NCBI GenBank assembly: GCA_963980215.1
Contig: CAXBYZ010000002.1
Location: 1,726-65,725, forward strand
Origin: an uncultured bacterium
Lineage (GTDB): Bacteria > Patescibacteriota > Microgenomatia > UBA1400 > CG1-02-47-37
DNA length: 64,000 bases
Reading direction: 5' to 3'
The notes under the pieces are model-generated. The model saw only the letters and a program-made list of their open reading frames with translations. It did no database searches and had not been told where the DNA came from. Below, in pieces: positions 2,270-64,000 of this stretch (positions within the stretch are counted from its first letter, which is position 1; each line of letters starts with the position of its first letter). The translations under genes and the position numbers were made by a program.

Positions 2270-3259
2270 ATGTTCAAACCACTAAAAAAGTTTGTCAAAA
2301 AAAATAGCACTACTTCTCTAGCTTTAGCGACCATTGCTATCTCCCTTTCAGTTGGCTTATCAATCCCCTCTGCTATCAATCCTAACATTAGCCAAATTTG
2401 TTTTGACTGGGATGTCAACTGCACTCAAACTAGGGCAACAAAAGAAAAAGCCAAACAAGCAGCTACCACTAGAAAAACAACCCCCAACCCACCAACACCC
2501 ACTAGACCAGATCCCGAAGATCTTCTTCCAGAAAATGAATTTTATGTTCCACCTGCCACGACTCCTGCCCCCCCCAAATCTGATGGCTGTAGAGAAGGTG
2601 AACGTCGATGCTATGGTGGTAAAAATCAATTCTGCGCCCCCCTTCCTAATAATCAAGGTACCGAGTGGATTAGTCTTGGCGGATCATGTGATCCTTCCAA
2701 ACCTTTAACAAACTACACCACTCAAACCACAACCGCTGAAACTCAAGAGGAAGATGAAAATTATGGAGTTCCTAAATGCAACCCTACATGTAAAGCACCA
2801 TATGTTTGCACCTGGCAAACAGGTAACTCAACTACTTGTATTCTTGAACAATTTACTTGTGTAGATGAAAATACAGGTGGAAATTATAAAAACGGGGTTC
2901 CTCTATACCTTCCCGGCCCTAGCGATCCTTACTGTAACTCATACAAAACCGGAGCAAATTCGGGATACGAATTTATCTCTCGAACCTGTGTCAATGGTCA
3001 ATGGAAAACCTCCTATTCAAAGAACCCAACCAGTAATTGTCCTGATACCGGTGGATGCCGAAGCTATACGAGTTCAGAAGAATTTCAGTTTAATAATTGC
3101 TGTGAAATAATGAAAAATCAATCAGATTGGGGTCAATATGAAAGTATGTGTAAAGGCCAATCTCAAATAGATAATTCAGATTCAAACCATTCAGTCATTG
3201 AAAAAGCCAAAGGATTCTTTGATGCTATCCTCTCAATTTTTGGCCTAAAAAGAACCTAA
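2270..3259 (+). CDS. Secreted cysteine-rich protein with a Pro/Thr-rich linker
   Basis: An N-terminal hydrophobic signal/anchor (LALATIAISLSVGLSI), a PT-rich stretch, and more than 20 Cys in the C-terminal 250 aa. No recognisable catalytic motif. Confidence 0.35.
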   Translation: MFKPLKKFVKKNSTTSLALATIAISLSVGLSIPSAINPNISQICFDWDVNCTQTRATKEKAKQAATTRKTTPNPPTPTRPDPEDLLPENEFYVPPATTPAPPKSDGCREGERRCYGGKNQFCAPLPNNQGTEWISLGGSCDPSKPLTNYTTQTTTAETQEEDENYGVPKCNPTCKAPYVCTWQTGNSTTCILEQFTCVDENTGGNYKNGVPLYLPGPSDPYCNSYKTGANSGYEFISRTCVNGQWKTSYSKNPTSNCPDTGGCRSYTSSEEFQFNNCCEIMKNQSDWGQYESMCKGQSQIDNSDSNHSVIEKAKGFFDAILSIFGLKRT

Positions 3260-13972: not shown

Positions 13973-16690
13973 ATGTCACCACAGGAAAGAGCAGTAGTCA
14001 GGCTAGCAAAACTTCCTATAAGACTTGCCCTATCTGTTGTAGATACTCCAAATGCTGTGCTCACTAGAGACCTAGAAGAGAGTCTCTCTTTCGGAACCAG
14101 GCCAGGTCTTACAAATTTTCTCCTAAACACCTTTAATGACCGACTACAAACAGAGGTAAATTGGAAACTAAATCATCCTCAATTATATTACCCTCTAGCA
14201 AATAAACCAGAAGAAGCCGTTGTCTTTGAGCTTTATGATACTCACGCTCAGCTTGCTACCAACTTTTTAGCTACCGCAGGCAGAACTCTACCAAGTTCAG
14301 AAACATCTAAACATAACGCCCAACTTTTAACTAGACTGGCTATTAATTTAATTATTCAGTCAGAAAATTGTTATAAACCCAGCACCAGCACTGAAATATT
14401 TGAAGATAAAAGACTAGCCTCCATCACTACCAGAGTTGCCCAAACTCCTCTCGATCCAAACACCACCAAAGCTCTTGTAGAAGTCATAAAAACCTGCTTC
14501 AACAACAAAAGCCCAAATATTGACCAACAAGGTAAACCCATCCATCCACTCCTAAAAATCAAAACTGGCAGCAGAGTCGACCCAGAGACGAATAAAGTAA
14601 AAGAGGTAAATCTAACCCTGGAAACGGCTGAATATCTTTTAGGGCTTCTCACCGACCTCAAATTTAGTCGACCTCCAAAAGAAGTAGTTCCCTTAATACA
14701 ATCCCTTGCTTTTGGTATCGAAAACTGGACCAGGTTTGCTATTAAAAATCCAGAAAAATTTGCTCTAGAAGTTATTAGAGATATGACTAATACACATCCT
14801 TTTGGGAGTTACATTTATACCAAAACAGCCTGTGGACCAGATACTCAAGTTAGTCATACAAAATCAGAGAATCGCGCTGATGACCTAGGAACTTTACCAG
14901 AAAACTGGATGAAAAATGGTAATTTAACCATGGGTAAACAAAGTCCATATCCAGAATATACCACCGATACTTTTACTCATTTCCGTCCAAAACAAGCCAC
15001 CCCAACCAGAAAATTAGAACCAATCGGAGGCGAAACCCCAACCCCATTAAGAATTAACGATAGGATAGCATCAACTGCAATCAGACATTTCTCTAAATTT
15101 CATCCTGGTAGATGGATTGAAAATTTTTCTAGATTTCCTTGGTACTCTGAAAAATATAAAACTATGGGCGGTGAAGTCGCCTATGTTGATGACCGTCATA
15201 GTTATCAAGAATTAGCTAATGCCCAAGCTGAAATTGTAAAAAAACGAGTCGATCAACTCAAAATTATTATTGATAAAAGTAACTCACCAGACTCCAAACT
15301 CACTGCTACTCACGCCTTAGCTTGTTATCTGGTCGATTATCAAGATGACGAAAGAGGAATTAGTCATAGTTTAAGAAGTGCTCTAGACAAACACATTGCC
15401 CCCTTACTGGCACAAATAATTATCAATAGTCAACCTAATGATGCTATCTGGCCCATGCTTCAAAACACAGTGCCACTCATGCCGTTTAGTAGTATTGACA
15501 CCATGCTTCAACACATGGAGCAAAATATGGGCACCACTCAACACTGCTTTAACTGGGCCGCCTTTTGCTACATTGCCCACGGAGATATTGCTCAAAGTGG
15601 TTTTAATGGAATACACGTTAGCGATGAAACCAGAAAAGCCATTTTCTATAGTGCTCAACGAGTTATTTTTGACAAACTTCCAGATCAAAAAAGTGCCGGA
15701 GTTAACTTTGTTCACCCTATTATGGCTTTTGCCAACCCCAAACAATATCCTCATTTTCAAGAATCTATTGAAGTTGCAAGTTTAAATGTCCACGCTCTTG
15801 CCCCCAGAATAACTCAATCATGGAAAGAGTATGTAGCTTATGATTTACGAGGCCACGATACTAACCCTCCGTTTACAGCAGAAAAAATCAAACCATTACT
15901 CAATCTTCTCCCAGATCCAGAATCTGTTAGAGAACTCATGCAACAACTTCAAAAGATTAAAGATCCAGCAAGTGAACTAGACTCTATCCTCCCTGGCCTT
16001 GCTCAGGAACTAAACGAATCAAGACAATCCTTAATCCAAGCTCTTGACATTCTTGCCCCCACAGACAAAATAGTAGATTTCGATGAATTACAAGATTTTT
16101 TAAATAAAGAAAGCCTTAATCCGCAAGATATTGAAGATCTCCAAGCAAGAATAGTAGCTAAAATTTTTGATAAACCTGGTGACGCCGCCATCATCATTGC
16201 CTTAAAGGAATCAGGACTCCTTCCCCTTCTTACCAAAAATGAAGCAATAAAAGCTGCTAAAATTACTGCTCTTAGAGGGGTTGTCTCAAGTACAGCTAAA
16301 AATCTCTCTGATAGTGCCATGGAAGCTATGCTCACCAAAATTGAAACTCAACTAGAACCAATCAAAGCCACTCTCGCTCTTCAGCAAACTGCTCTTGATA
16401 TCACCAAAAGTATCAGAGAAGGGTTTTCTGATATTATGAAAACTCAAATTAATTTAAAACTCAAATATGTTAATCATCTCCAAAATCTGGTCAACTCCCA
16501 ACATGAAAACACAGAGTTGCAAAGGGTTAGAAAAACAGTTTATAACAACTGCGGTAAAATTAGAAAAGAGTTAAAATGTAACATAAGTCAATTATTACCT
16601 AATCTTACCCTTGAAGAGCTTGTCGAAATCCTTAACCTTCCCCCAGAAATACAAGAAATTTTACTACAAACAAATACAACTACTACCTAA
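13973..16690 (+). CDS. Large hypothetical cytoplasmic protein (905 aa)
   Basis: An uninterrupted 2.7-kb ORF with no TM or signal peptide and a helical, repeat-like C-terminal third. No catalytic motif recognised. Confidence 0.45.
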   Translation: MSPQERAVVRLAKLPIRLALSVVDTPNAVLTRDLEESLSFGTRPGLTNFLLNTFNDRLQTEVNWKLNHPQLYYPLANKPEEAVVFELYDTHAQLATNFLATAGRTLPSSETSKHNAQLLTRLAINLIIQSENCYKPSTSTEIFEDKRLASITTRVAQTPLDPNTTKALVEVIKTCFNNKSPNIDQQGKPIHPLLKIKTGSRVDPETNKVKEVNLTLETAEYLLGLLTDLKFSRPPKEVVPLIQSLAFGIENWTRFAIKNPEKFALEVIRDMTNTHPFGSYIYTKTACGPDTQVSHTKSENRADDLGTLPENWMKNGNLTMGKQSPYPEYTTDTFTHFRPKQATPTRKLEPIGGETPTPLRINDRIASTAIRHFSKFHPGRWIENFSRFPWYSEKYKTMGGEVAYVDDRHSYQELANAQAEIVKKRVDQLKIIIDKSNSPDSKLTATHALACYLVDYQDDERGISHSLRSALDKHIAPLLAQIIINSQPNDAIWPMLQNTVPLMPFSSIDTMLQHMEQNMGTTQHCFNWAAFCYIAHGDIAQSGFNGIHVSDETRKAIFYSAQRVIFDKLPDQKSAGVNFVHPIMAFANPKQYPHFQESIEVASLNVHALAPRITQSWKEYVAYDLRGHDTNPPFTAEKIKPLLNLLPDPESVRELMQQLQKIKDPASELDSILPGLAQELNESRQSLIQALDILAPTDKIVDFDELQDFLNKESLNPQDIEDLQARIVAKIFDKPGDAAIIIALKESGLLPLLTKNEAIKAAKITALRGVVSSTAKNLSDSAMEAMLTKIETQLEPIKATLALQQTALDITKSIREGFSDIMKTQINLKLKYVNHLQNLVNSQHENTELQRVRKTVYNNCGKIRKELKCNISQLLPNLTLEELVEILNLPPEIQEILLQTNTTTT

Positions 16691-48686: not shown

Positions 48687-50042
48687 ATGCTATCCTATAG
48701 CATGTTAAAAAAGGTTCCCTTCCCTCAAGTTCACCAACAAATCGAAAACATAGTCAAAAAATACTCGCTGACCCTCAGCGAATCTCAACGCAGTCAAATC
48801 GCCCTCCTCTCTGGCCAACTTCAAAACTGGATATCTCCCCTTACCAAAATCATTGCCAAAAATCCCAACCACACTCTTGACAGTCTCTTAAAACTTCCTC
48901 AGATCAACCAACTCTGCCAAGATTTGTTTTCCCTTATCCCTCAAGACCAGTGGTTTTATCTAGTTAACCCCAAATCAAACACCAAAAGTCCCTACTCTCC
49001 TCTCTTTACTCACTGGCTCAAACACCAACCCCTAACCGAAAAATTTAAACTCTGTCAAGCCACTCTCACCGCTTCAGAGGCCAAAATTACCCGCCTCCTT
49101 CACCAAAAACTTGGCCTGATCTGTTCCCGAGACGAGATTGCCCAAAGTTTGTGGGGTCAAAATTGGATGGAAAAATACTCCGACTGGTGCATCGACACTC
49201 TCATTCATCACCTTAAAACCAAGCTTAATCAATCTTGGAAGCTCACCACCATTAGAAATCGAGGCTACCTTCTCTCCCCATCTTCTTCGGTTGTTCCTCC
49301 CAAAACCCCAACCAATTCCGTTCCCGGCACTCGCCCCACCAAAGTTTATCTAGACTACATGAACAACCCCAACAATATTCGTCAAACCATCAAAGACTTA
49401 CTTTCCGCCACCGATCAAGCCCACTTGACCTCAAATCTTATCACTTACCTTAAAAAAGACCCCCAACCGTCTATTCTAGCCATCAACTCCTACTCTTATG
49501 ACAATGTTGACAGTCTCCACTCTTTTACCAAAAATATATTAAAAAACCCTCCCTCAATCTACTTCACCAATTCCGACGATCGCGCCCTTGAACTCCACCG
49601 CAATCGAGCCTCCAAACTTAATCTTCATCACCTAGTCACCCTCTATGACGATATCCGCCACTCTCGACTTCAAACCCAATCTCTTTCTATAGTCATCAAT
49701 GACTTTCGTCTCAACTTTAACATCACCAACAAGCAAAACCAACAAGCCATGAAGCACACTCATCGGATCTTAAAGCCAAAAGGTTATGTCTTGATCTCGG
49801 TGGTAATAGATAATCGCTATGAATCAGCTCGGTACGGCACCAACCAACAAAAAGCACCCCTAAACCACCACAAACCCTGGACTTTCAAAGCCCAAGAAAA
49901 TCTAGAACGACACTGCTTTACCGTTCCCTACTACCAGGAATTATTTAAAAAAGCCGGCTTTAAAGTTGTTAAACAGTTTGACACCAAAGCAGGCAAAGCC
50001 TGGCAACCCGCCTTTAGGCGTTTCTTCCTCCAAAAAATCTAA
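48687..50042 (+). CDS. OmpR/PhoB-type winged-helix domain fused to a class I SAM-dependent methyltransferase
   Basis: Residues ~100-190 (LTASEAKITRLLHQKLGLICSRDEIAQSLWG...DTLIHHLKTKL...TIRNRGYLL) match trans_reg_C. The C-terminal third (HRILKPKGYVLISVV) looks like a methyltransferase. Confidence 0.4.
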   Translation: MLSYSMLKKVPFPQVHQQIENIVKKYSLTLSESQRSQIALLSGQLQNWISPLTKIIAKNPNHTLDSLLKLPQINQLCQDLFSLIPQDQWFYLVNPKSNTKSPYSPLFTHWLKHQPLTEKFKLCQATLTASEAKITRLLHQKLGLICSRDEIAQSLWGQNWMEKYSDWCIDTLIHHLKTKLNQSWKLTTIRNRGYLLSPSSSVVPPKTPTNSVPGTRPTKVYLDYMNNPNNIRQTIKDLLSATDQAHLTSNLITYLKKDPQPSILAINSYSYDNVDSLHSFTKNILKNPPSIYFTNSDDRALELHRNRASKLNLHHLVTLYDDIRHSRLQTQSLSIVINDFRLNFNITNKQNQQAMKHTHRILKPKGYVLISVVIDNRYESARYGTNQQKAPLNHHKPWTFKAQENLERHCFTVPYYQELFKKAGFKVVKQFDTKAGKAWQPAFRRFFLQKI

Positions 50043-56018: not shown

Positions 56019-58488
<2,470 letters not shown>

Positions 58489-58499
<11 letters not shown>

Positions 58500-59889
58500 T
58501 TTTTATCAACCTCTTCACTAATTTCTTCTTAATTGTAGATAAATCACTACACCCATCCACTAATTTCTCCACCTTATCAATAAAATCATCATCAATCTTG
58601 ATCTCCTTTTTAGCCGACCATTTTCCTATCAAAATCATCACCCCCAGATAACTAATTACCTTTGAGTCCAAATTCAACCACTGCTCGTTTCTCAAAAACC
58701 TCCACAAACTCTCACCCCTTGATAAAATTCTCTTAAAACTCTCAGACAACTCCGCCCCAAACTTGGTATATCTCTGGGTCTTCTCATACTGAGTAATTAA
58801 ACTCAATAACTCCCGAGATAACTCCCGTCTTAGTGGTGTTTGAGCCTGGCGCCCCACCCTGGTCACCGATAAAAATGGGTTTATGGCCGGCCGAACCCCT
58901 TTAACATACAACTCATTATCAAAATAAACATGACCGTCGGTCATACTCATCAAGTTAGTCGGAATATAACCAGTCAAGTCTCCAGCCTTGGTGTGACAAA
59001 TGGGTAAACAAGAAATACTTCCCTCTTTTTTAGAAAAATTTCCGGCCCTTTCAAGAAGGCTGGAGTGAACATAAAAAATATCACCAGGGTAAGATTCTCG
59101 CCCCGGAAAACTCTGGCCAAGCAAAGCTAGCTCCCGATAAAATTGAGCGTGGGTAGATAAATCGTCCATCACCAAAATAACCCTCTTTCCTCTAGACATA
59201 AAGTACTCAGAAATGGTCATTGCCGCATACGGAGCTTCAAAAATCTCTCCCAAACTATCAGCTGAGCTTGCCGCCACTACCACACATTTTTTTAAGATTT
59301 TAGCTTTCTTTAATCGACTCACCACCGCCATAATTTCCGACTTTCGTTTGCCAATACAAGCATACACCCCGATCGCCCCCCGACTCACTTGAAACTCTAA
59401 AATCTTTAACGCCAAGTCACTCTTACCAGTGGTTCTGTCTCCCACCAACAGCTCCCGCTGGCCCTCACCCATCGGCACCATCAAATCAACCACTGGCACT
59501 CCGGTTTCCAAAGCCTGGCTAATTCTCTCCCTCACTTCAATCCCTGCCGGCTGTACTTTTGTTTCATGACCCTTCATCAAATGAGCTTCATTTTTTGTTC
59601 CCACAATCTTCTCTCCCAATGCATTATAAACTTTTCCTAGTAATTGCTCGTGAGTTCTAAGCTTAAACCTAGATCCTGTTCCGGCTACTTTCGTTCCCAC
59701 CTTGATTGACTCTCGCGAAAAGACCACTGCTTCCGCCCCAGTTTCCTCAATTTCTCTTACCTGACCCCACTGTCCGGACCTAAACTTTAGCACCTCCCCT
59801 ACCACCACTTTTTTTAATCCATTCACCATCACCAACGACTGATTTACCTTAATTACCTCCCCCAAATATCTTTGTTTTGACTCTGTCAT
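58489..59889 (-). CDS. atpA: F1 ATP synthase alpha subunit
   Basis: The P-loop GDRTTGKS with alpha-type length and order. Confidence 0.85.
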
Positions 59890-59920: not shown

Positions 59921-60724
59921 CTAGATCGTTAATATAAAGTAAGCTGCCAGCAAACCTACCCCCATCACTACAGCAGTTAAGATTAAATTTAGTCCCATAC
60001 TAAACTGAATCTTGCCCATAGCCCTAGGATTTCTCCCTACCGACTCGACTCCACTCTTGACCACTTTTCCAAAAAATCCAACTCCCACCGCTACTCCAAC
60101 CGCTGTCACCAAGGCCGCCAATGCATGTCTAAAACCCACTCGAGCTGGACCAGCAATAATCCGTATTTGATTTCTAACTCTATCCACCATGGTTCTGGCC
60201 TCAAGCACTACCGGTCGAATATTTAACTCCACTAACACCTTACTGATCTCTTTTAGGTCTTGAGAATCATAATCTTCCAGAGAAATGCCCAACATCTGAC
60301 CAGATCTAGCCGCCTTCTGGCCCACCCCTGGAACTTCAGAACTAGTAATGTAGTCGCCTTTCTTGATCTCTCCTCCTTGATTAGTCACCTGAACATAGAC
60401 TCTCCCTGAAGTAATAATTGGTCTAGTGTTTAACTCAGTCGTGTTAATTAAAGCTACCGCCGGTGAATCATCAATCACTCCATACATATCCTGAGAATAG
60501 CTTTGCTCACACAAAACCTTGCCAAACTGAGTATCGCAAATTATCAAGCCATCAGCCACTTCCACTAAAGCCTCATTTAACTGAACCTCAACCGCAACCC
60601 CCGGCGCCATCGCCTGTGCCGAACGCACAGAAAAAAGGTCCGTTTTTGAAGGTACTCCTTTAAGGCCGAACCTTAATGGAATTAACAAACAAATAAAAGT
60701 GAGTAAGGCAGTCAGTACTTTCAT
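59921..60724 (-). CDS. Signal-peptide protein with a C-terminal two-helix hairpin resembling an F-type ATPase c-subunit
   Basis: The N-terminal signal MKVLTALLTFICLLIPL. The C-terminal ~65 aa read LVTAVGVAVGVGFFGKVVKSGVESVGRNPRAMGKIQFSMGLNLILTAVVMGVGLLAAYF: a Gly-rich helix, an RNP loop and a second helix without Asp/Glu. It lies immediately upstream of atpA. Confidence 0.35.
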   Translation of the reverse strand: MKVLTALLTFICLLIPLRFGLKGVPSKTDLFSVRSAQAMAPGVAVEVQLNEALVEVADGLIICDTQFGKVLCEQSYSQDMYGVIDDSPAVALINTTELNTRPIITSGRVYVQVTNQGGEIKKGDYITSSEVPGVGQKAARSGQMLGISLEDYDSQDLKEISKVLVELNIRPVVLEARTMVDRVRNQIRIIAGPARVGFRHALAALVTAVGVAVGVGFFGKVVKSGVESVGRNPRAMGKIQFSMGLNLILTAVVMGVGLLAAYFILTI

Positions 60725-60869
60725 GCTTAACCAGTATGACTAATAACCTCAAACTATGTCAAGGTACCAATACTTAGACAAACTTGGACATACATACCCA
60801 ATTTTACTCTTGACAAAGCCCCTCAAGCTGTGAGCATAATATATTACTTATTATATATAGTCAGTTAAC

Positions 60870-63800
60870 ATGTCTCTGCCCAACGACTTCAAACTCTCCA
60901 TCCAAGATGCCGCTGACCGCTTGGGTGTCTCCACCAAAACTCTTAGACGCTGGGAAACCAAAGGTTTAATTACCCCTCACCGCACTGTTGGCAATCAACG
61001 CCGCTACTCCCTCACCCAAATAGATACCTTTCAACAACAATCCACTTCCCAAGCAACTACTCCAAACTTGAAGGTAAGTTCTACCGGGTCCCTTAAACCA
61101 GTTCTAGCTGCTTTATTCTTAATTACCCTTCCCTTAGCCTCTCTATTTTTCAAACCCAAATTCATCTCTCCGATTTCTCAATCAAAAACCAACATTCTTG
61201 GTCAATTTAACACTTCTCCTCTTTCTCCCACCCAAAGTCACGTTTTAGGCAACCAAGCCATCAAATCAGACTATGTATTTAACGTCAATGTCCCAGCCAG
61301 TTTTAATGATTTAGTCTCTCTCTACTCAGCTTCTGTCTCCGGCAATCTTACCGTCCAAGGTCAAATCGTCAACCCCAATCTTCTTACCGGTTTAATAGCC
61401 GGCGAAGGTTTAGAAGTCACCGCCGGCCAATCCCCGATTATCTCAAATCTCGACCCCGGCTCCGGTCAATTTATTTTTTCAACTATTAAACTTGGTGATA
61501 ACTCCGTCACTGCCGGCAGTAATACCGATACTTTTGAATTCACGGCCGGAGGCACTACTTCCCTCTCTTTAGACACCACCAACAAAAAGCTAACCATCAC
61601 CGGAGCTACCCCAAACTACACCGAGTCCGGCTGGACCAATGCCTCCGGCAAAGTCACTCTCTCTACTATCACAGACAATATCGGTATTGGTACCTCTAAC
61701 CCAGCCTACAAACTTGAAGTCACCGGCACCGGTTACTTTTCCGATACCTTAACCGCCAACAACGGCCTCATCGTTACTGGAGCTGCCAACATCTCCAACT
61801 CCACCACTATCACCGGTGCTCTTCAAGTAAACAACTCCACTGCCAGTAACACCGACTTTAATATCAACGGCTCTGGTGATCTCACCATCTCCGACTCCGG
61901 CACTCCATTTATTACCTTTAGTGATAACGGCAACATCACCCTAGCCAACGACGCTCTCCTAGATTTATCCAATGTCACTCACGACGACTCCGCCGCCCAA
62001 GGCTTTATCCTCCCTCAAGCCGACTCCCTTGCCTCTCCATCTTCCGGTGAAGGTTACTTGGCTTGGGACTCAGACGACGACTCTCTAAAAGTCTTTAACG
62101 GCTCGGTCTGGGCCGACGTCGCAGGTTCAGGTTCCAGTAAATGGACTGATGGCGGCACCACTACTTATCTCACTGCCAACGACAACATCGGCATCGGCAC
62201 CACCAATGCTACCCAAAAACTTCAAGTGGCCGGCACCATTCAAGCCACCGGCTTCAAACTCACTACTGGCGCTACTACTAACTATGTTCTAACTTCTGAT
62301 GCCGATGGCGTTGGTACTTGGCAAGTTGCTTCCGGTGGTTCCGGCACTATCGACGGTTCCGGCACTTCAAACTATCTTTCCAAGTGGTCAGACTCAGACA
62401 CCCTCACTTCTTCTCTTCTCTTTGACACTGGTACTAATATTGGTTTAGGTACCACCAACCCCACTACCCAACTCTACCTCACTGGAGATCTCACTATTGC
62501 CGGTGGAGACTTAATCATTGGGGCTACTAATATTTTTTCAGGTGGTGACACCACTAGTCTAAATAACCTTGACGGCATCGATGCCACCACCGAATCTACC
62601 TTTGAATCTGCTCTAGATATTGCCGGAGACATCACCGGCACCGGCCTATCTTCCGTCACCATAAACGCCAACACCATAGACGACTCCGAACTTGTCAACG
62701 CTCTTACCTACACAGGATCCTTAACTCTCTCTAACGCTCTCACCCTATCTACCGTCTCCGCAGACACAGACAACACTGTTCTAATTTTAAACTCCTCCGG
62801 GGCCGTCACCAGTGACGAAATCGATCCTCGTGCATGGGGATCAACTTTACTAGACGACACAGATATCGACTCTACAGTTCAAAGCTATAACGCCAACACT
62901 TCCCTCATCGGCCAAACCATAGAAACCGGAGAGATCACCAACGATACTATTTTAGAAATCGACTTTAACTCCACCAACGCTCCCACAGATAACTACGTTC
63001 TGTCCTACGACTCAGCTTCCGGTGGCTTTACTTGGGCAGAAGACGCTGGCGGCGGCGGAGGCTCAAGTTTATTCACCGATGGCGGTACCACTACTTACCT
63101 TACTTCCCTCACCGACGATCTTGGTATTGGCGGTACCGGCCCCGAAGCCTCACTCTTTTTTGATCAATCTGCTTCTGCTTTAACTCTCAACCCCTACAAC
63201 ACCGCTTCTGGTAATACCGGCGAAATTAGACTAACTGAACTAGTAGCCAACGGCTCAAACTACTCCGGCTTTAAGGCTCCCGATTCTCTTGCAGATAACG
63301 TCATCTACACTCTCCCTTCTGCCGATGGTTCTTCTAACCAAGTTCTAGCCACCGATGCTTCCGGCAACCTCTCTTGGATCGATGTTTCTGCTGGTGCCGG
63401 TGGTGGTGTTTGGTCAGACGGTGGTACTTACCTTAAACCAACCAACAACGAATCCATGCGAGTCTATGACTCCGGTGGCACCGACTATATTGATATCTCT
63501 CACGATGGCACCAACGCCAACCTCACTTTTGCTAGCACTTCCTTATACACCATTGACACTTCCGACCTTGCCCTTGAACTCTCCTCAGGCAATCTTGGTC
63601 TTGGGACTACCGCTCCTGGTTACAAGTTAGATGTTAGTGGCACCGCCGGTTTCTCATCAACCATCTATGCTCCTAGTATTGGAGCCGGTACAGACAACTC
63701 CGTCATTGTCTTAAACTCCTCAGGAAACTTAGTTACCGACGAAATCGATCCAAGAGTCTGGGGATCTACTCTAGTTGATGACTCAGATATTGGCTCAACC

Positions 63801-64000
63801 ATCCAAGCCTACAACGCTAGCACTTCCCTTATTGGTCAAACCATCAATGAAGCCGAACTTGATGTTACCAACTCTCCTACGGACAACTTCCTCCTCACTT
63901 TTGACAACGCTTCCAGCGGCTTTACTTGGATTGACCCCACTTCCGTCGGTGCCTTTGATGGTTCCGGCACTTCAAACTATCTTTCCAAGTGGTCAGACTC
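60870..64000 (+). CDS. Giant surface protein (3' truncated by the window edge): MerR-type HTH, one TM helix, then a more than 950-aa repeat region
   Basis: The frame is open from the ATG at 60870 to the window end, so it is absent from the ORF track. The N-terminus reads LSIQDAADRLGVSTKTLRRWETKGLITPHRTVGNQRRYS (MerR/excisionase-type HTH), then a TM segment VLAALFLITLPLASLFF. Repeated NIGIGTTNxxxKLxV-type motifs follow. There are large internal repeats, for example 62349-62390 = 63960-64000. Confidence 0.6.
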   Translation, partial: MSLPNDFKLSIQDAADRLGVSTKTLRRWETKGLITPHRTVGNQRRYSLTQIDTFQQQSTSQATTPNLKVSSTGSLKPVLAALFLITLPLASLFFKPKFISPISQSKTNILGQFNTSPLSPTQSHVLGNQAIKSDYVFNVNVPASFNDLVSLYSASVSGNLTVQGQIVNPNLLTGLIAGEGLEVTAGQSPIISNLDPGSGQFIFSTIKLGDNSVTAGSNTDTFEFTAGGTTSLSLDTTNKKLTITGATPNYTESGWTNASGKVTLSTITDNIGIGTSNPAYKLEVTGTGYFSDTLTANNGLIVTGAANISNSTTITGALQVNNSTASNTDFNINGSGDLTISDSGTPFITFSDNGNITLANDALLDLSNVTHDDSAAQGFILPQADSLASPSSGEGYLAWDSDDDSLKVFNGSVWADVAGSGSSKWTDGGTTTYLTANDNIGIGTTNATQKLQVAGTIQATGFKLTTGATTNYVLTSDADGVGTWQVASGGSGTIDGSGTSNYLSKWSDSDTLTSSLLFDTGTNIGLGTTNPTTQLYLTGDLTIAGGDLIIGATNIFSGGDTTSLNNLDGIDATTESTFESALDIAGDITGTGLSSVTINANTIDDSELVNALTYTGSLTLSNALTLSTVSADTDNTVLILNSSGAVTSDEIDPRAWGSTLLDDTDIDSTVQSYNANTSLIGQTIETGEITNDTILEIDFNSTNAPTDNYVLSYDSASGGFTWAEDAGGGGGSSLFTDGGTTTYLTSLTDDLGIGGTGPEASLFFDQSASALTLNPYNTASGNTGEIRLTELVANGSNYSGFKAPDSLADNVIYTLPSADGSSNQVLATDASGNLSWIDVSAGAGGGVWSDGGTYLKPTNNESMRVYDSGGTDYIDISHDGTNANLTFASTSLYTIDTSDLALELSSGNLGLGTTAPGYKLDVSGTAGFSSTIYAPSIGAGTDNSVIVLNSSGNLVTDEIDPRVWGSTLVDDSDIGSTIQAYNASTSLIGQTINEAELDVTNSPTDNFLLTFDNASSGFTWIDPTSVGAFDGSGTSNYLSKWSD

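Follow-up and report, generated by a model that had tools for sequence, protein, structure and literature searches.

A giant tail-fibre-like surface protein of Patescibacteria with an N-terminal MerR/BldC-type DNA-binding fold: a candidate membrane-tethered autoregulator

Transmembrane transcription regulators (TTRs) combine an N-terminal cytoplasmic DNA-binding domain, a single transmembrane (TM) helix and an extracytoplasmic domain on one polypeptide and are presumed to work on DNA while in the membrane. In the prototypes ToxR, TcpP and CadC the DNA-binding domain is an OmpR-type winged helix (Pfam Trans_reg_C) and the outer part is a small periplasmic sensor domain. The domain counts of the survey by Demey et al. 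(2023; PMC10269533) put MerR at 0.77%, MerR_1 at 0.70% and HTH_17 at 0.30% of 50,302 TTRs, and the name “Patescibacteria” does not occur in the supplementary files of that survey that were searched. Here we describe a gene that begins at position 60870 (+ strand) of a 64,000-nucleotide stretch of DNA from an uncultured Patescibacteria bacterium (contig CAXBYZ010000002.1; the whole stretch is hereafter called the window) and runs off its end. Judged from its predicted domains, the product, which we refer to as the fibre protein, fits the TTR definition of Demey et al. (2023), which asks for a predicted DNA-binding domain plus one or more TM regions in a single protein. It and its relatives differ from the prototypes in pairing a minimal winged helix-turn-helix (HTH) of MerR/BldC type with a tail-fibre-like outside part, at lengths of 1,900 to >6,000 residues. 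Trans_reg_C gave no Pfam match in the fibre protein, which is thus not a member of the ToxR/CadC family.

For the DNA-binding fold the nearest described systems are soluble proteins. BldC and phage Xis have the same fold as the N-terminus of the fibre protein and likewise lack a coiled-coil dimerisation helix; BldC binds direct repeats head to tail (PMC5859096), and the candidate sites at our locus are also direct repeats, spaced at about one helical turn. BldC (about 68 residues) and Xis are free-standing proteins of about 55–70 residues, whereas the domain described here forms the N-terminal end of a giant membrane protein and is only predicted to bind DNA. Because this HTH is joined to a TM helix and another 1,800 or more residues, it is not free-standing, and the fibre protein is therefore not a strict BldC-family member. 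Classical MerR activators (MerR, SoxR, CueR, BmrR) share with the fibre protein the HTH and wing signature, the divergent orientation from a neighbouring operon and a promoter spacer of 19–21 bp (19–20 bp in classical MerR promoters; PMC5859096), but the antiparallel coiled coil and C-terminal effector domain are missing from the fibre protein, which is moreover membrane-tethered. RacA, the chromosome anchor of Bacillus subtilis, is the best structural match of the HTH and uses a MerR-like winged HTH to hold DNA at the membrane or pole; it differs in being a soluble coiled-coil dimer that reaches the membrane via DivIVA and binds GC-rich inverted repeats around the origin. RodZ resembles the fibre protein in having a cytoplasmic HTH, a single TM helix and an extracytoplasmic domain, although its HTH is of XRE type and binds MreB, not DNA, and its periplasmic domain is small.

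The part predicted to lie outside the cell resembles phage tail fibres and tailspikes, as well as “tail fiber domain-containing proteins” of KSB1, Calditrichota and Zixibacteria. The likeness includes the motif N-I-G-I-G-T..P..KL.V.G, shared modules (E down to 1e-59) and, in full-length family members, Peptidase_S74. Those proteins carry a signal peptide or form part of a virion, and none has a cytoplasmic DNA-binding domain. In open-access papers and bioRxiv we found no description of a MerR/BldC-type HTH joined to one TM helix and a giant tail-fibre-like ectodomain, nor of its pairing with ATP synthase genes.

The fibre gene is genuine, and it is long. Read from the ATG at 60870, the frame is free of stops for 1043 codons, to position 64000, and is still open there, in agreement with the first-pass annotation of this DNA, which had reported a continuous open reading frame (ORF) of more than 1040 codons that was missing from the accompanying ORF list. 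That list omits ORFs that leave the window, which accounts for the absence. An in-frame TAG at 60858–60860 makes this ATG the earliest possible start, and the next start candidate, a TTG at codon 18, would truncate the HTH. A look-up of the neighbouring atpA product led to the same genome region on 22 contigs, and the DNA of eight loci from different samples was compared. The fibre-gene sequences of these eight independent assemblies are mutually identical except for one mismatch in L082, and none reveals a stop or frameshift. Contig L083 matches the window at 3131/3131 nt and prolongs the frame to 1,895 codons, where it is again open, so that the window holds the 5′ part of a gene of at least 1,895 codons whose end has not been reached. 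All eight contigs end within the gene, as is expected of a repetitive gene. In the closest orthologue (P0001 in locus L001; 74% identity), the called protein of 1,406 residues stops at a frameshift; when this is read through, the frame extends to at least 2,268 codons.

The first-pass annotation had placed a MerR/excisionase-type HTH in the first ~45 residues, and profile and fold searches uphold it. The domain, a minimal MerR-like winged HTH predicted to be cytoplasmic, spans residues 8–60 (60891–61049, + strand). Pfam MerR matches residues 10–46 at 2.7e-13 (50 bits; cut-off 28.2), MerR_1 matches at 1e-10 (42 bits; cut-off 21.6) over profile positions 2–47 of 69 only, and HTH_17 at 1.1e-08 (35.6 bits; cut-off 27). 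NCBIfam matches are confined to the DNA-binding parts of HspR, SoxR, BldC, IS607 transposase and excisionase: the equivalogs SoxR, CueR, MerR and HspR are covered over the HTH only and score far below their cut-offs, and NF033787 (HTH_BldC) reaches 5e-6, below its cut-off. AlphaFold2 (AF2) models the domain with a confidence (pLDDT) of 94–96. The best solved structures found by Foldseek are RacA on DNA (the top match), Xis of mycobacteriophage Pukovnik, BldC on DNA (rmsd 1.5 Å over 47 residues, 32% identity) and classical MerR proteins on DNA. By sequence (phmmer), the best PDB match is SoxR (6.7e-5), with KGLIT..R..GNQRRY in common. The helix stops at residue 60 in the AF2 model, with no coiled-coil dimerisation helix after it, and there is no effector domain, which places the HTH with the minimal BldC/Xis kind and not with classical MerR regulators. 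Residues A14, A15, T24, L25, R26, W28, R38, G41, R44 and Y46 are invariant in an alignment of 19 relatives, and codon position 2 of the HTH is 95% conserved vs. 55% for position 3, showing the HTH codons to be under purifying selection.

A low-complexity linker rich in Q, S and T (residues 61–74; 61050–61091, + strand; AF2 pLDDT <50) connects the HTH to the membrane; in relatives it varies in both sequence and length (median 64 residues, range 28–147). The TM helix, a predicted N-in signal anchor, occupies residues 75–93 (61092–61148, + strand). This is the sole hydrophobic span, as had been proposed, with a Kyte–Doolittle value of 1.98 and no other span >1.6 across the 1043 residues, and AF2 places a helix at the same residues. 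Among 71 relatives, the 15 residues flanking the TM segment hold 219 K+R before it vs. 130 after it, and the balance favours the N side in 46 loci and the C side in 12. The N-terminus is a folded basic domain without a signal peptide. Taken together with the positive-inside statistics and the homology of the C-terminal part to secreted fibres, this argues for an N-in, C-out topology, and hence for the order of cytoplasmic HTH, one TM helix and large fibre-like ectodomain that the first reading of the sequence had suggested. The gene product reads as a type-II membrane protein of a Patescibacteria/candidate phyla radiation (CPR) bacterium, probably of Microgenomates type.

The ectodomain is dominated by T (14%), S (13%), G (12%), D (9%) and N (8%) and contains zero Cys. 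Its recurring N[IL]G[IL]G(T/G) motif stands at residues 270, 439, 523, 750 and 908; in the longer form N-I-G-I-G-T..P..KL.V.G it has 5 copies within the window and 10 over all 1,895 residues, which bears out the initial description of G/T/S/N-rich repeats with an NIGIGTTNP-type motif. Closest to the membrane lies a conserved base (residues 126–290; 61245–61739, + strand), kept in 19 relatives that share 31–46% identity and marked by the signature VLG..YVFNVNVPAxF .. GSxQxIF .. NTDTxxF .. KKLTI .. GWT .. NIGIGT..KLEVTG. Further out, a fibre module at residues 615–749 (62712–63116, + strand) matches one at residues 923–1043 (63636–63998, + strand) with 50–56% identity (E 1e-26 to 1e-30); additional module pairs exist, and the module is repeated several further times beyond the window, in the L083 extension. 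The DNA bears the same imprint, with repeats D2, D3 and D11 at offsets of 894–924 nt between module copies. The kilobase-scale internal duplication noted at the outset is present at 62352–62395 (+ strand), a 44-nt repeat of family D4 that is 98% identical to 63957–64000, and at 62814–62920, which is 77% identical to 63738–63844. Tandem Repeats Finder detected no tandem array in the DNA; the repeats are dispersed module duplications.

Searches with the ectodomain yielded no phmmer match among PDB sequences, and the 1043 in-window residues alone gave no fibre match in PHROG or Pfam. Residues 1044–1895, for which Pfam likewise returned nothing, match phrog_3269 (2.1e-6) and phrog_9942 (6.1e-6); the continuation of the orthologue matches phrog_9942 at 1.4e-25, and the family member P0043 also matches PHROG tail-fibre families. 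Among complete members, P0043 ends in Peptidase_S74 (residues 1014–1065) and P0005 in an H-type lectin. Peptidase_S74 is absent from residues 1–1895 of the fibre protein, the C-terminus of which lies beyond the assembled sequence. We found no Pfam match to a YadA-type C-terminal beta-barrel anchor or to head and stalk repeats in residues 1–1895, and a YadA_head repeat appeared, below threshold, in one distant homologue only. The tail and tail-fibre matches of the extension, with the terminal domains of full-length relatives, substantiate the tail-fibre- or adhesin-like character proposed for the ectodomain, and the fibre probably functions as an adhesin. In some members an intein (Pfam Intein_splicing) lies within the fibre region or in a giant gene just downstream (P0019, Shapirobacteria; L091:9293–10101).

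The same architecture recurs widely. MerR Pfam domains occur at the N-terminus of 33 of the 120 best homologues; the named HTH-bearing ones are Patescibacteria (Shapirobacteria, WWE3, Saccharimonadales), and annotation pipelines label homologues as “MerR family DNA-binding transcriptional regulator” or “excisionase family DNA binding protein.” In fibre homologues from KSB1, Calditrichota, Zixibacteria and Kapaibacteria an ordinary signal peptide replaces the HTH and TM helix. A profile of the N-terminal module, built on the region shared by the 19 relatives, recovers no fewer than 754 clusters (50% identity) at E < 1e-30, the longest protein having 6,147 residues. A homology search with the N-terminal 110 residues alone was uninformative: it returned 5 short fragments, a consequence of the word-index limit. 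Using the peptide VSTKTLRRW, taken from a 7-sequence alignment, we collected 80 species-representative loci, a set that is therefore biased towards one recognition-helix type. All 80 encode the N-terminal HTH (at about residues 20–100) and 77 have one hydrophobic segment at residues 80–213; in two of the three without it, the ORF is cut after 64 residues by the contig end. The ORFs range from ~700 to >3,100 residues, most of them cut by the end of the locus, and several family members carry two tandem HTHs. Named taxa are Levy-, Ames-, Woese- and Shapirobacteria, Microgenomatus and Saccharibacteria, mostly Microgenomates. This breadth of conservation marks the fusion of HTH, TM helix and fibre as ancient and selected. 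The first-pass annotation had called the architecture unusual, which holds relative to studied bacteria; it is not rare, as the family is large, conserved and already labelled by pipelines. Many of the loci bear the label “uncultured Gammaproteobacteria bacterium.” We doubt this label because the loci share CPR-type synteny and the same unusual neighbouring gene.

The intergenic region between the fibre gene and its divergent neighbour, the first gene of an ATP synthase operon, is 145 nt long and holds candidate control elements for both. Promoters are given here as consensus matches only. A promoter-like site of the fibre gene (60810–60840, + strand) consists of TTGACA (60810–60815), a 19-nt spacer and CATAAT (60835–60840), and is kept with the same 19-nt spacing in orthologue L001. 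On the minus strand, a second such site (TTGACA, 18 nt, CATACT; 60733–60762) faces the neighbour and the ATP synthase operon. Between the two, at 60773–60790 (+ strand), CTTAGACA and CTTGGACA stand as direct repeats in tandem (period 10 nt) and are a candidate operator for the HTH; the whole 64 kb contains just three motif matches, these two included. With that of the orthologue, the intergenic core shares 82% identity, compared with 72% for the atpA DNA and 55% for third codon positions of the HTH.

Across 82 relatives, the 320 nt upstream of the family gene hold 3.47 copies of the 8-mer CTTrGACA per kb, against 0.51 in other non-ORF DNA and 0.06 in ORFs, which amounts to a 7-fold and an about 58-fold enrichment, respectively. 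An unbiased 8-mer screen independently recovers the motif, the extended form of which is AAACTTrGACA. Its copies recur at spacings of 10 nt (6 times) and 32 nt (6 times), and 83 of the 104 copies of the 10-mer AACTTrGACA in ~960 kb fall between the neighbour and the family gene. The promoters also stand apart: among strong sigma-70-like hexamer pairs, those upstream of the family gene have spacers of 19–21 nt in 19 of 26 cases and never of 17, whereas those upstream of neighbouring genes have 17–18 nt in 12 of 15 cases and 19–21 nt in none of the 15. Locus L092, with the canonical recognition helix, retains tandem TGGACAA/TTGGACA repeats, and loci L090 and L091, with a variant helix and wing, are without the motif, a hint that motif and recognition helix may co-vary. 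Rfam identified two tRNAs as its only matches over the window and no RNA element in the leader. A replication origin in this repeat-rich region was considered and rejected, since the GC skew at four-fold degenerate sites keeps its sign across it.

The explanation we favour, which we hold with slightly better than even confidence, is that the protein is a membrane-anchored adhesin-like fibre that doubles as a membrane-tethered, BldC-like one-component autoregulator. To the domain order, topology statistics, family conservation, synteny and cis-elements as observed, it adds DNA binding as a predicted property. The ~60 N-terminal residues would stay in the cytoplasm as a minimal MerR-like winged HTH, followed by a flexible linker and then the TM signal anchor, while at least 1,800 residues of Cys-free, modular, tail-fibre-like protein would protrude from the cell as a long adhesin-type fibre. 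That fibre would presumably assemble as a trimer; in complete relatives it ends in a Peptidase_S74 trimerisation chaperone or a lectin. The tethered HTH may bind the AAACTTrGACA direct repeats in its own divergent promoter region head to tail, as BldC or Xis do on direct repeats; periods of 10 or 32 nt put the copies on one face of the helix. It would thereby control a promoter with a 19–21 bp spacer, the kind that MerR-type proteins re-align, and might control the divergent ATP synthase operon as well. The amount, clustering or engagement of fibres could then feed back on transcription without a diffusible intermediate, and a tether from surface to promoter is feasible because the cells are so small that the chromosome is always near the membrane. 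A membrane-tethered signal transducer had been raised in the first-pass annotation, and the conserved operator-like repeats and long-spacer promoters upstream lend it indirect support.

Several observations weigh against this explanation. The exact 8-mer is missing from the 320 nt upstream in 30 of the 82 loci, and many loci are related, so that the counts are not independent events. The motif is one base off a -35 hexamer (CTTG-G-ACA vs. CTTGACA) and could be sigma-related or bound by another factor. It lies upstream of the -35 element in the window and just after the -10 element in other lineages, and as its position relative to the promoter varies in this way, the evidence does not point to one mode of action, be it activation or repression. 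In classical MerR promoters the operator is a dyad within the spacer, whereas we found no consistent dyad there: a short TCA-N5-TGA is common to the window and L001 only, and no dyad is shared across lineages. The link between the HTH and the repeats is correlative. In the AF2 monomer model (residues 1–330), pLDDT is <50 at residues 96–210, and only the HTH and TM helix are confident; the ectodomain base is not interpretable there, and the beta-helical nature suggested in the first-pass annotation gains no support from it.

Of the alternatives, one grants that the HTH binds DNA but assigns the binding to tethering: the protein would fasten the chromosome, or the very long gene that encodes it, to the membrane, much as RacA holds DNA at the cell pole, or would set up a site of transertion at which transcription, translation and export of the giant ectodomain take place together. 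The RacA DNA-binding domain is the top fold match, the HTH at the N-terminus would leave the ribosome first and beside sites in its own promoter, and the gene is very long (at least 5.7 kb) and paired with membrane-protein genes. Tethering sits poorly with sites concentrated at one promoter (3 matches in 64 kb, two of them there), and the long-spacer promoters indicate transcriptional control. We regard tethering as the sole role as rather unlikely, though tethering and regulation are not mutually exclusive.

We find it rather improbable, too, that the HTH has ceased to bind DNA and serves as a protein-interaction or retention module, or as a folded plug of the signal anchor, with the repeats belonging to another regulator. 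Such a fate has a parallel in RodZ, an HTH-TM protein whose HTH binds MreB, and it would accommodate both the resemblance of the motif to a -35 element and the loci that are without the exact 8-mer. The residues that are conserved, however, are those of the MerR DNA-binding signature (the helix-2 region and an R..GNQRRY wing as in SoxR), and the closest solved folds are all DNA-binding domains, most of them in complexes with DNA. The tandem duplication of the HTH in some members and the hint of co-variation between motif and recognition helix also speak for DNA recognition.

A more specific version of the autoregulator we favour would make the fibre a host-contact sensor, in which engagement or clustering of the fibre would, free of any signalling intermediate, re-array tethered HTHs on the AAACTTrGACA repeats and so switch both the fibre gene and the operon of ATP synthase and the c-subunit-like neighbour. 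We consider this quite unlikely. If it were true, attachment to a host would act directly on energy metabolism in obligate episymbionts, which possess very few conventional regulators.

The first-pass annotation had also envisaged a regulator released by proteolysis, that is, a latent transcription factor freed by regulated cleavage in or near the membrane after a signal from the fibre. The TM helix contains two prolines (P78 and P88), a long flexible linker precedes it, and the regulated proteolysis known for the single-pass regulators CadC and TcpP provides a precedent. Nothing in our results favours release, however: we saw no conserved cleavage motif, neither the TM helix nor the linker has a sequence conserved through the family, and the neighbourhood contains no conserved protease gene. 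A freed 60-residue HTH without an oligomerisation domain would require cooperative binding, and in such small cells release would be unnecessary. We judge it decidedly unlikely. The last alternative, an artefact or mobile-element remnant (an assembly chimera, a pseudo-fusion of excisionase and prophage tail fibre, or a frameshifted gene pair), draws on the HTH matches to excisionase and IS607 DNA-binding domains, the fibre matches to phage tail fibres and the break of every contig inside the gene, but is effectively refuted by the recurrence of the fusion in 80 species-level genomes and at least 754 clusters, the agreement of eight assemblies, the purifying selection on the HTH codons and a flank of ATP synthase operon and leucyl-tRNA synthetase with no phage genes nearby.

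The membrane-tethered autoregulator, should it be borne out, would matter beyond this locus. Much of bacterial diversity belongs to the Patescibacteria/CPR, which live in attachment to other cells and in which few regulators can be recognised; little is known of how they detect a host and keep hold of it. Fibres with a DNA-binding domain of their own would be the shortest possible route from surface to promoter, and would extend the TTRs to the MerR/BldC fold and to structural, adhesin-like ectodomains. The family is large, with 754 or more clusters and proteins that reach about 6,000 residues, and this is to be set against genomes of ~1 Mb. As a candidate operator and a promoter type have been defined, the idea is directly testable with a 65-residue domain and 150 bp of DNA, and no culture is needed.

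The family also draws attention to a conserved pairing with an ATP synthase operon, from which the gene almost always lies divergent. The product of the divergent neighbour (59921–60724, - strand; 267 residues) begins with a signal peptide, continues as a beta-rich ectodomain and ends in a helical hairpin resembling the ATP synthase c subunit, and its gene forms one operon with the F-ATP synthase alpha, gamma, beta and epsilon genes (56019–59889, - strand; Pfam). A neighbour of ~260 residues stands upstream and divergent in 70 of 82 loci, and ATP synthase genes are present in about 55–62 of the 82; the same synteny occurs in three members, including one from WWE3, that were obtained without use of the search peptide. 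The hairpin superposes on the F-ATPase c subunit 9itt_I with a Foldseek TM-score of 0.90 and an rmsd of 1.1 Å. It keeps the conserved RNP loop, but the ion-binding position of helix 2 lacks a carboxylate, and Pfam ATP-synt_C matches below threshold. Genes for canonical a or c subunits do not adjoin the operon, nor in the window do those for b and delta. A prophage origin of the fibre gene was considered and rejected because the genes that flank it are housekeeping genes.

Other genes recur around family members. In several loci, small genes for a four-helix bundle of the 23S_rRNA_IVP/bAvd type adjoin the family gene (L001:5827–6189, L092:7083–7721, L003:3019–3381). Diversity-generating retroelements have bAvd as their accessory protein; we saw no reverse transcriptase near these genes. 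Very large genes lie downstream of the family gene in relatives (L091:7116–10101, L092:7711–10041), with products of 720 residues, of at least 1,214 residues with an intein, and of 3,172 residues with Laminin_G_3 and Toxin_R_bind_N, which suggests a surface-protein gene cluster. In L090 (2444–2900), two small ORFs are inserted between the c-subunit-like neighbour and the family gene; one encodes 83 residues with a weak match to DUF7387, and the frame after it resembles a HicA-type toxin by eye only.

The window as a whole (1–64000) shows an extreme strand asymmetry, with 18,368 C vs. 7,952 G and a GC skew of about -0.4 in each 2-kb bin irrespective of gene strand. Four-fold degenerate sites of the fibre gene have 290 C, 230 T, 82 A and 12 G, and minus-strand genes mirror this. 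The same bias is found in the Amesbacteria-labelled loci L009, L011, L019 and L026 (G 15–19% vs. C 28–34%). Elsewhere in the window, a 451-residue ORF (48687–50042, + strand) pairs a Trans_reg_C winged helix (residues 126–196) with a C-terminal methyltransferase domain, an unusual combination. A hypothetical protein of 905 residues (13973–16690, + strand) has as its cluster representative MBT7670072.1, labelled “Bdellovibrionales bacterium” in NCBI; this label and the “Gammaproteobacteria” one clash with gene content and synteny of CPR type, and have the look of errors in binning or labelling.

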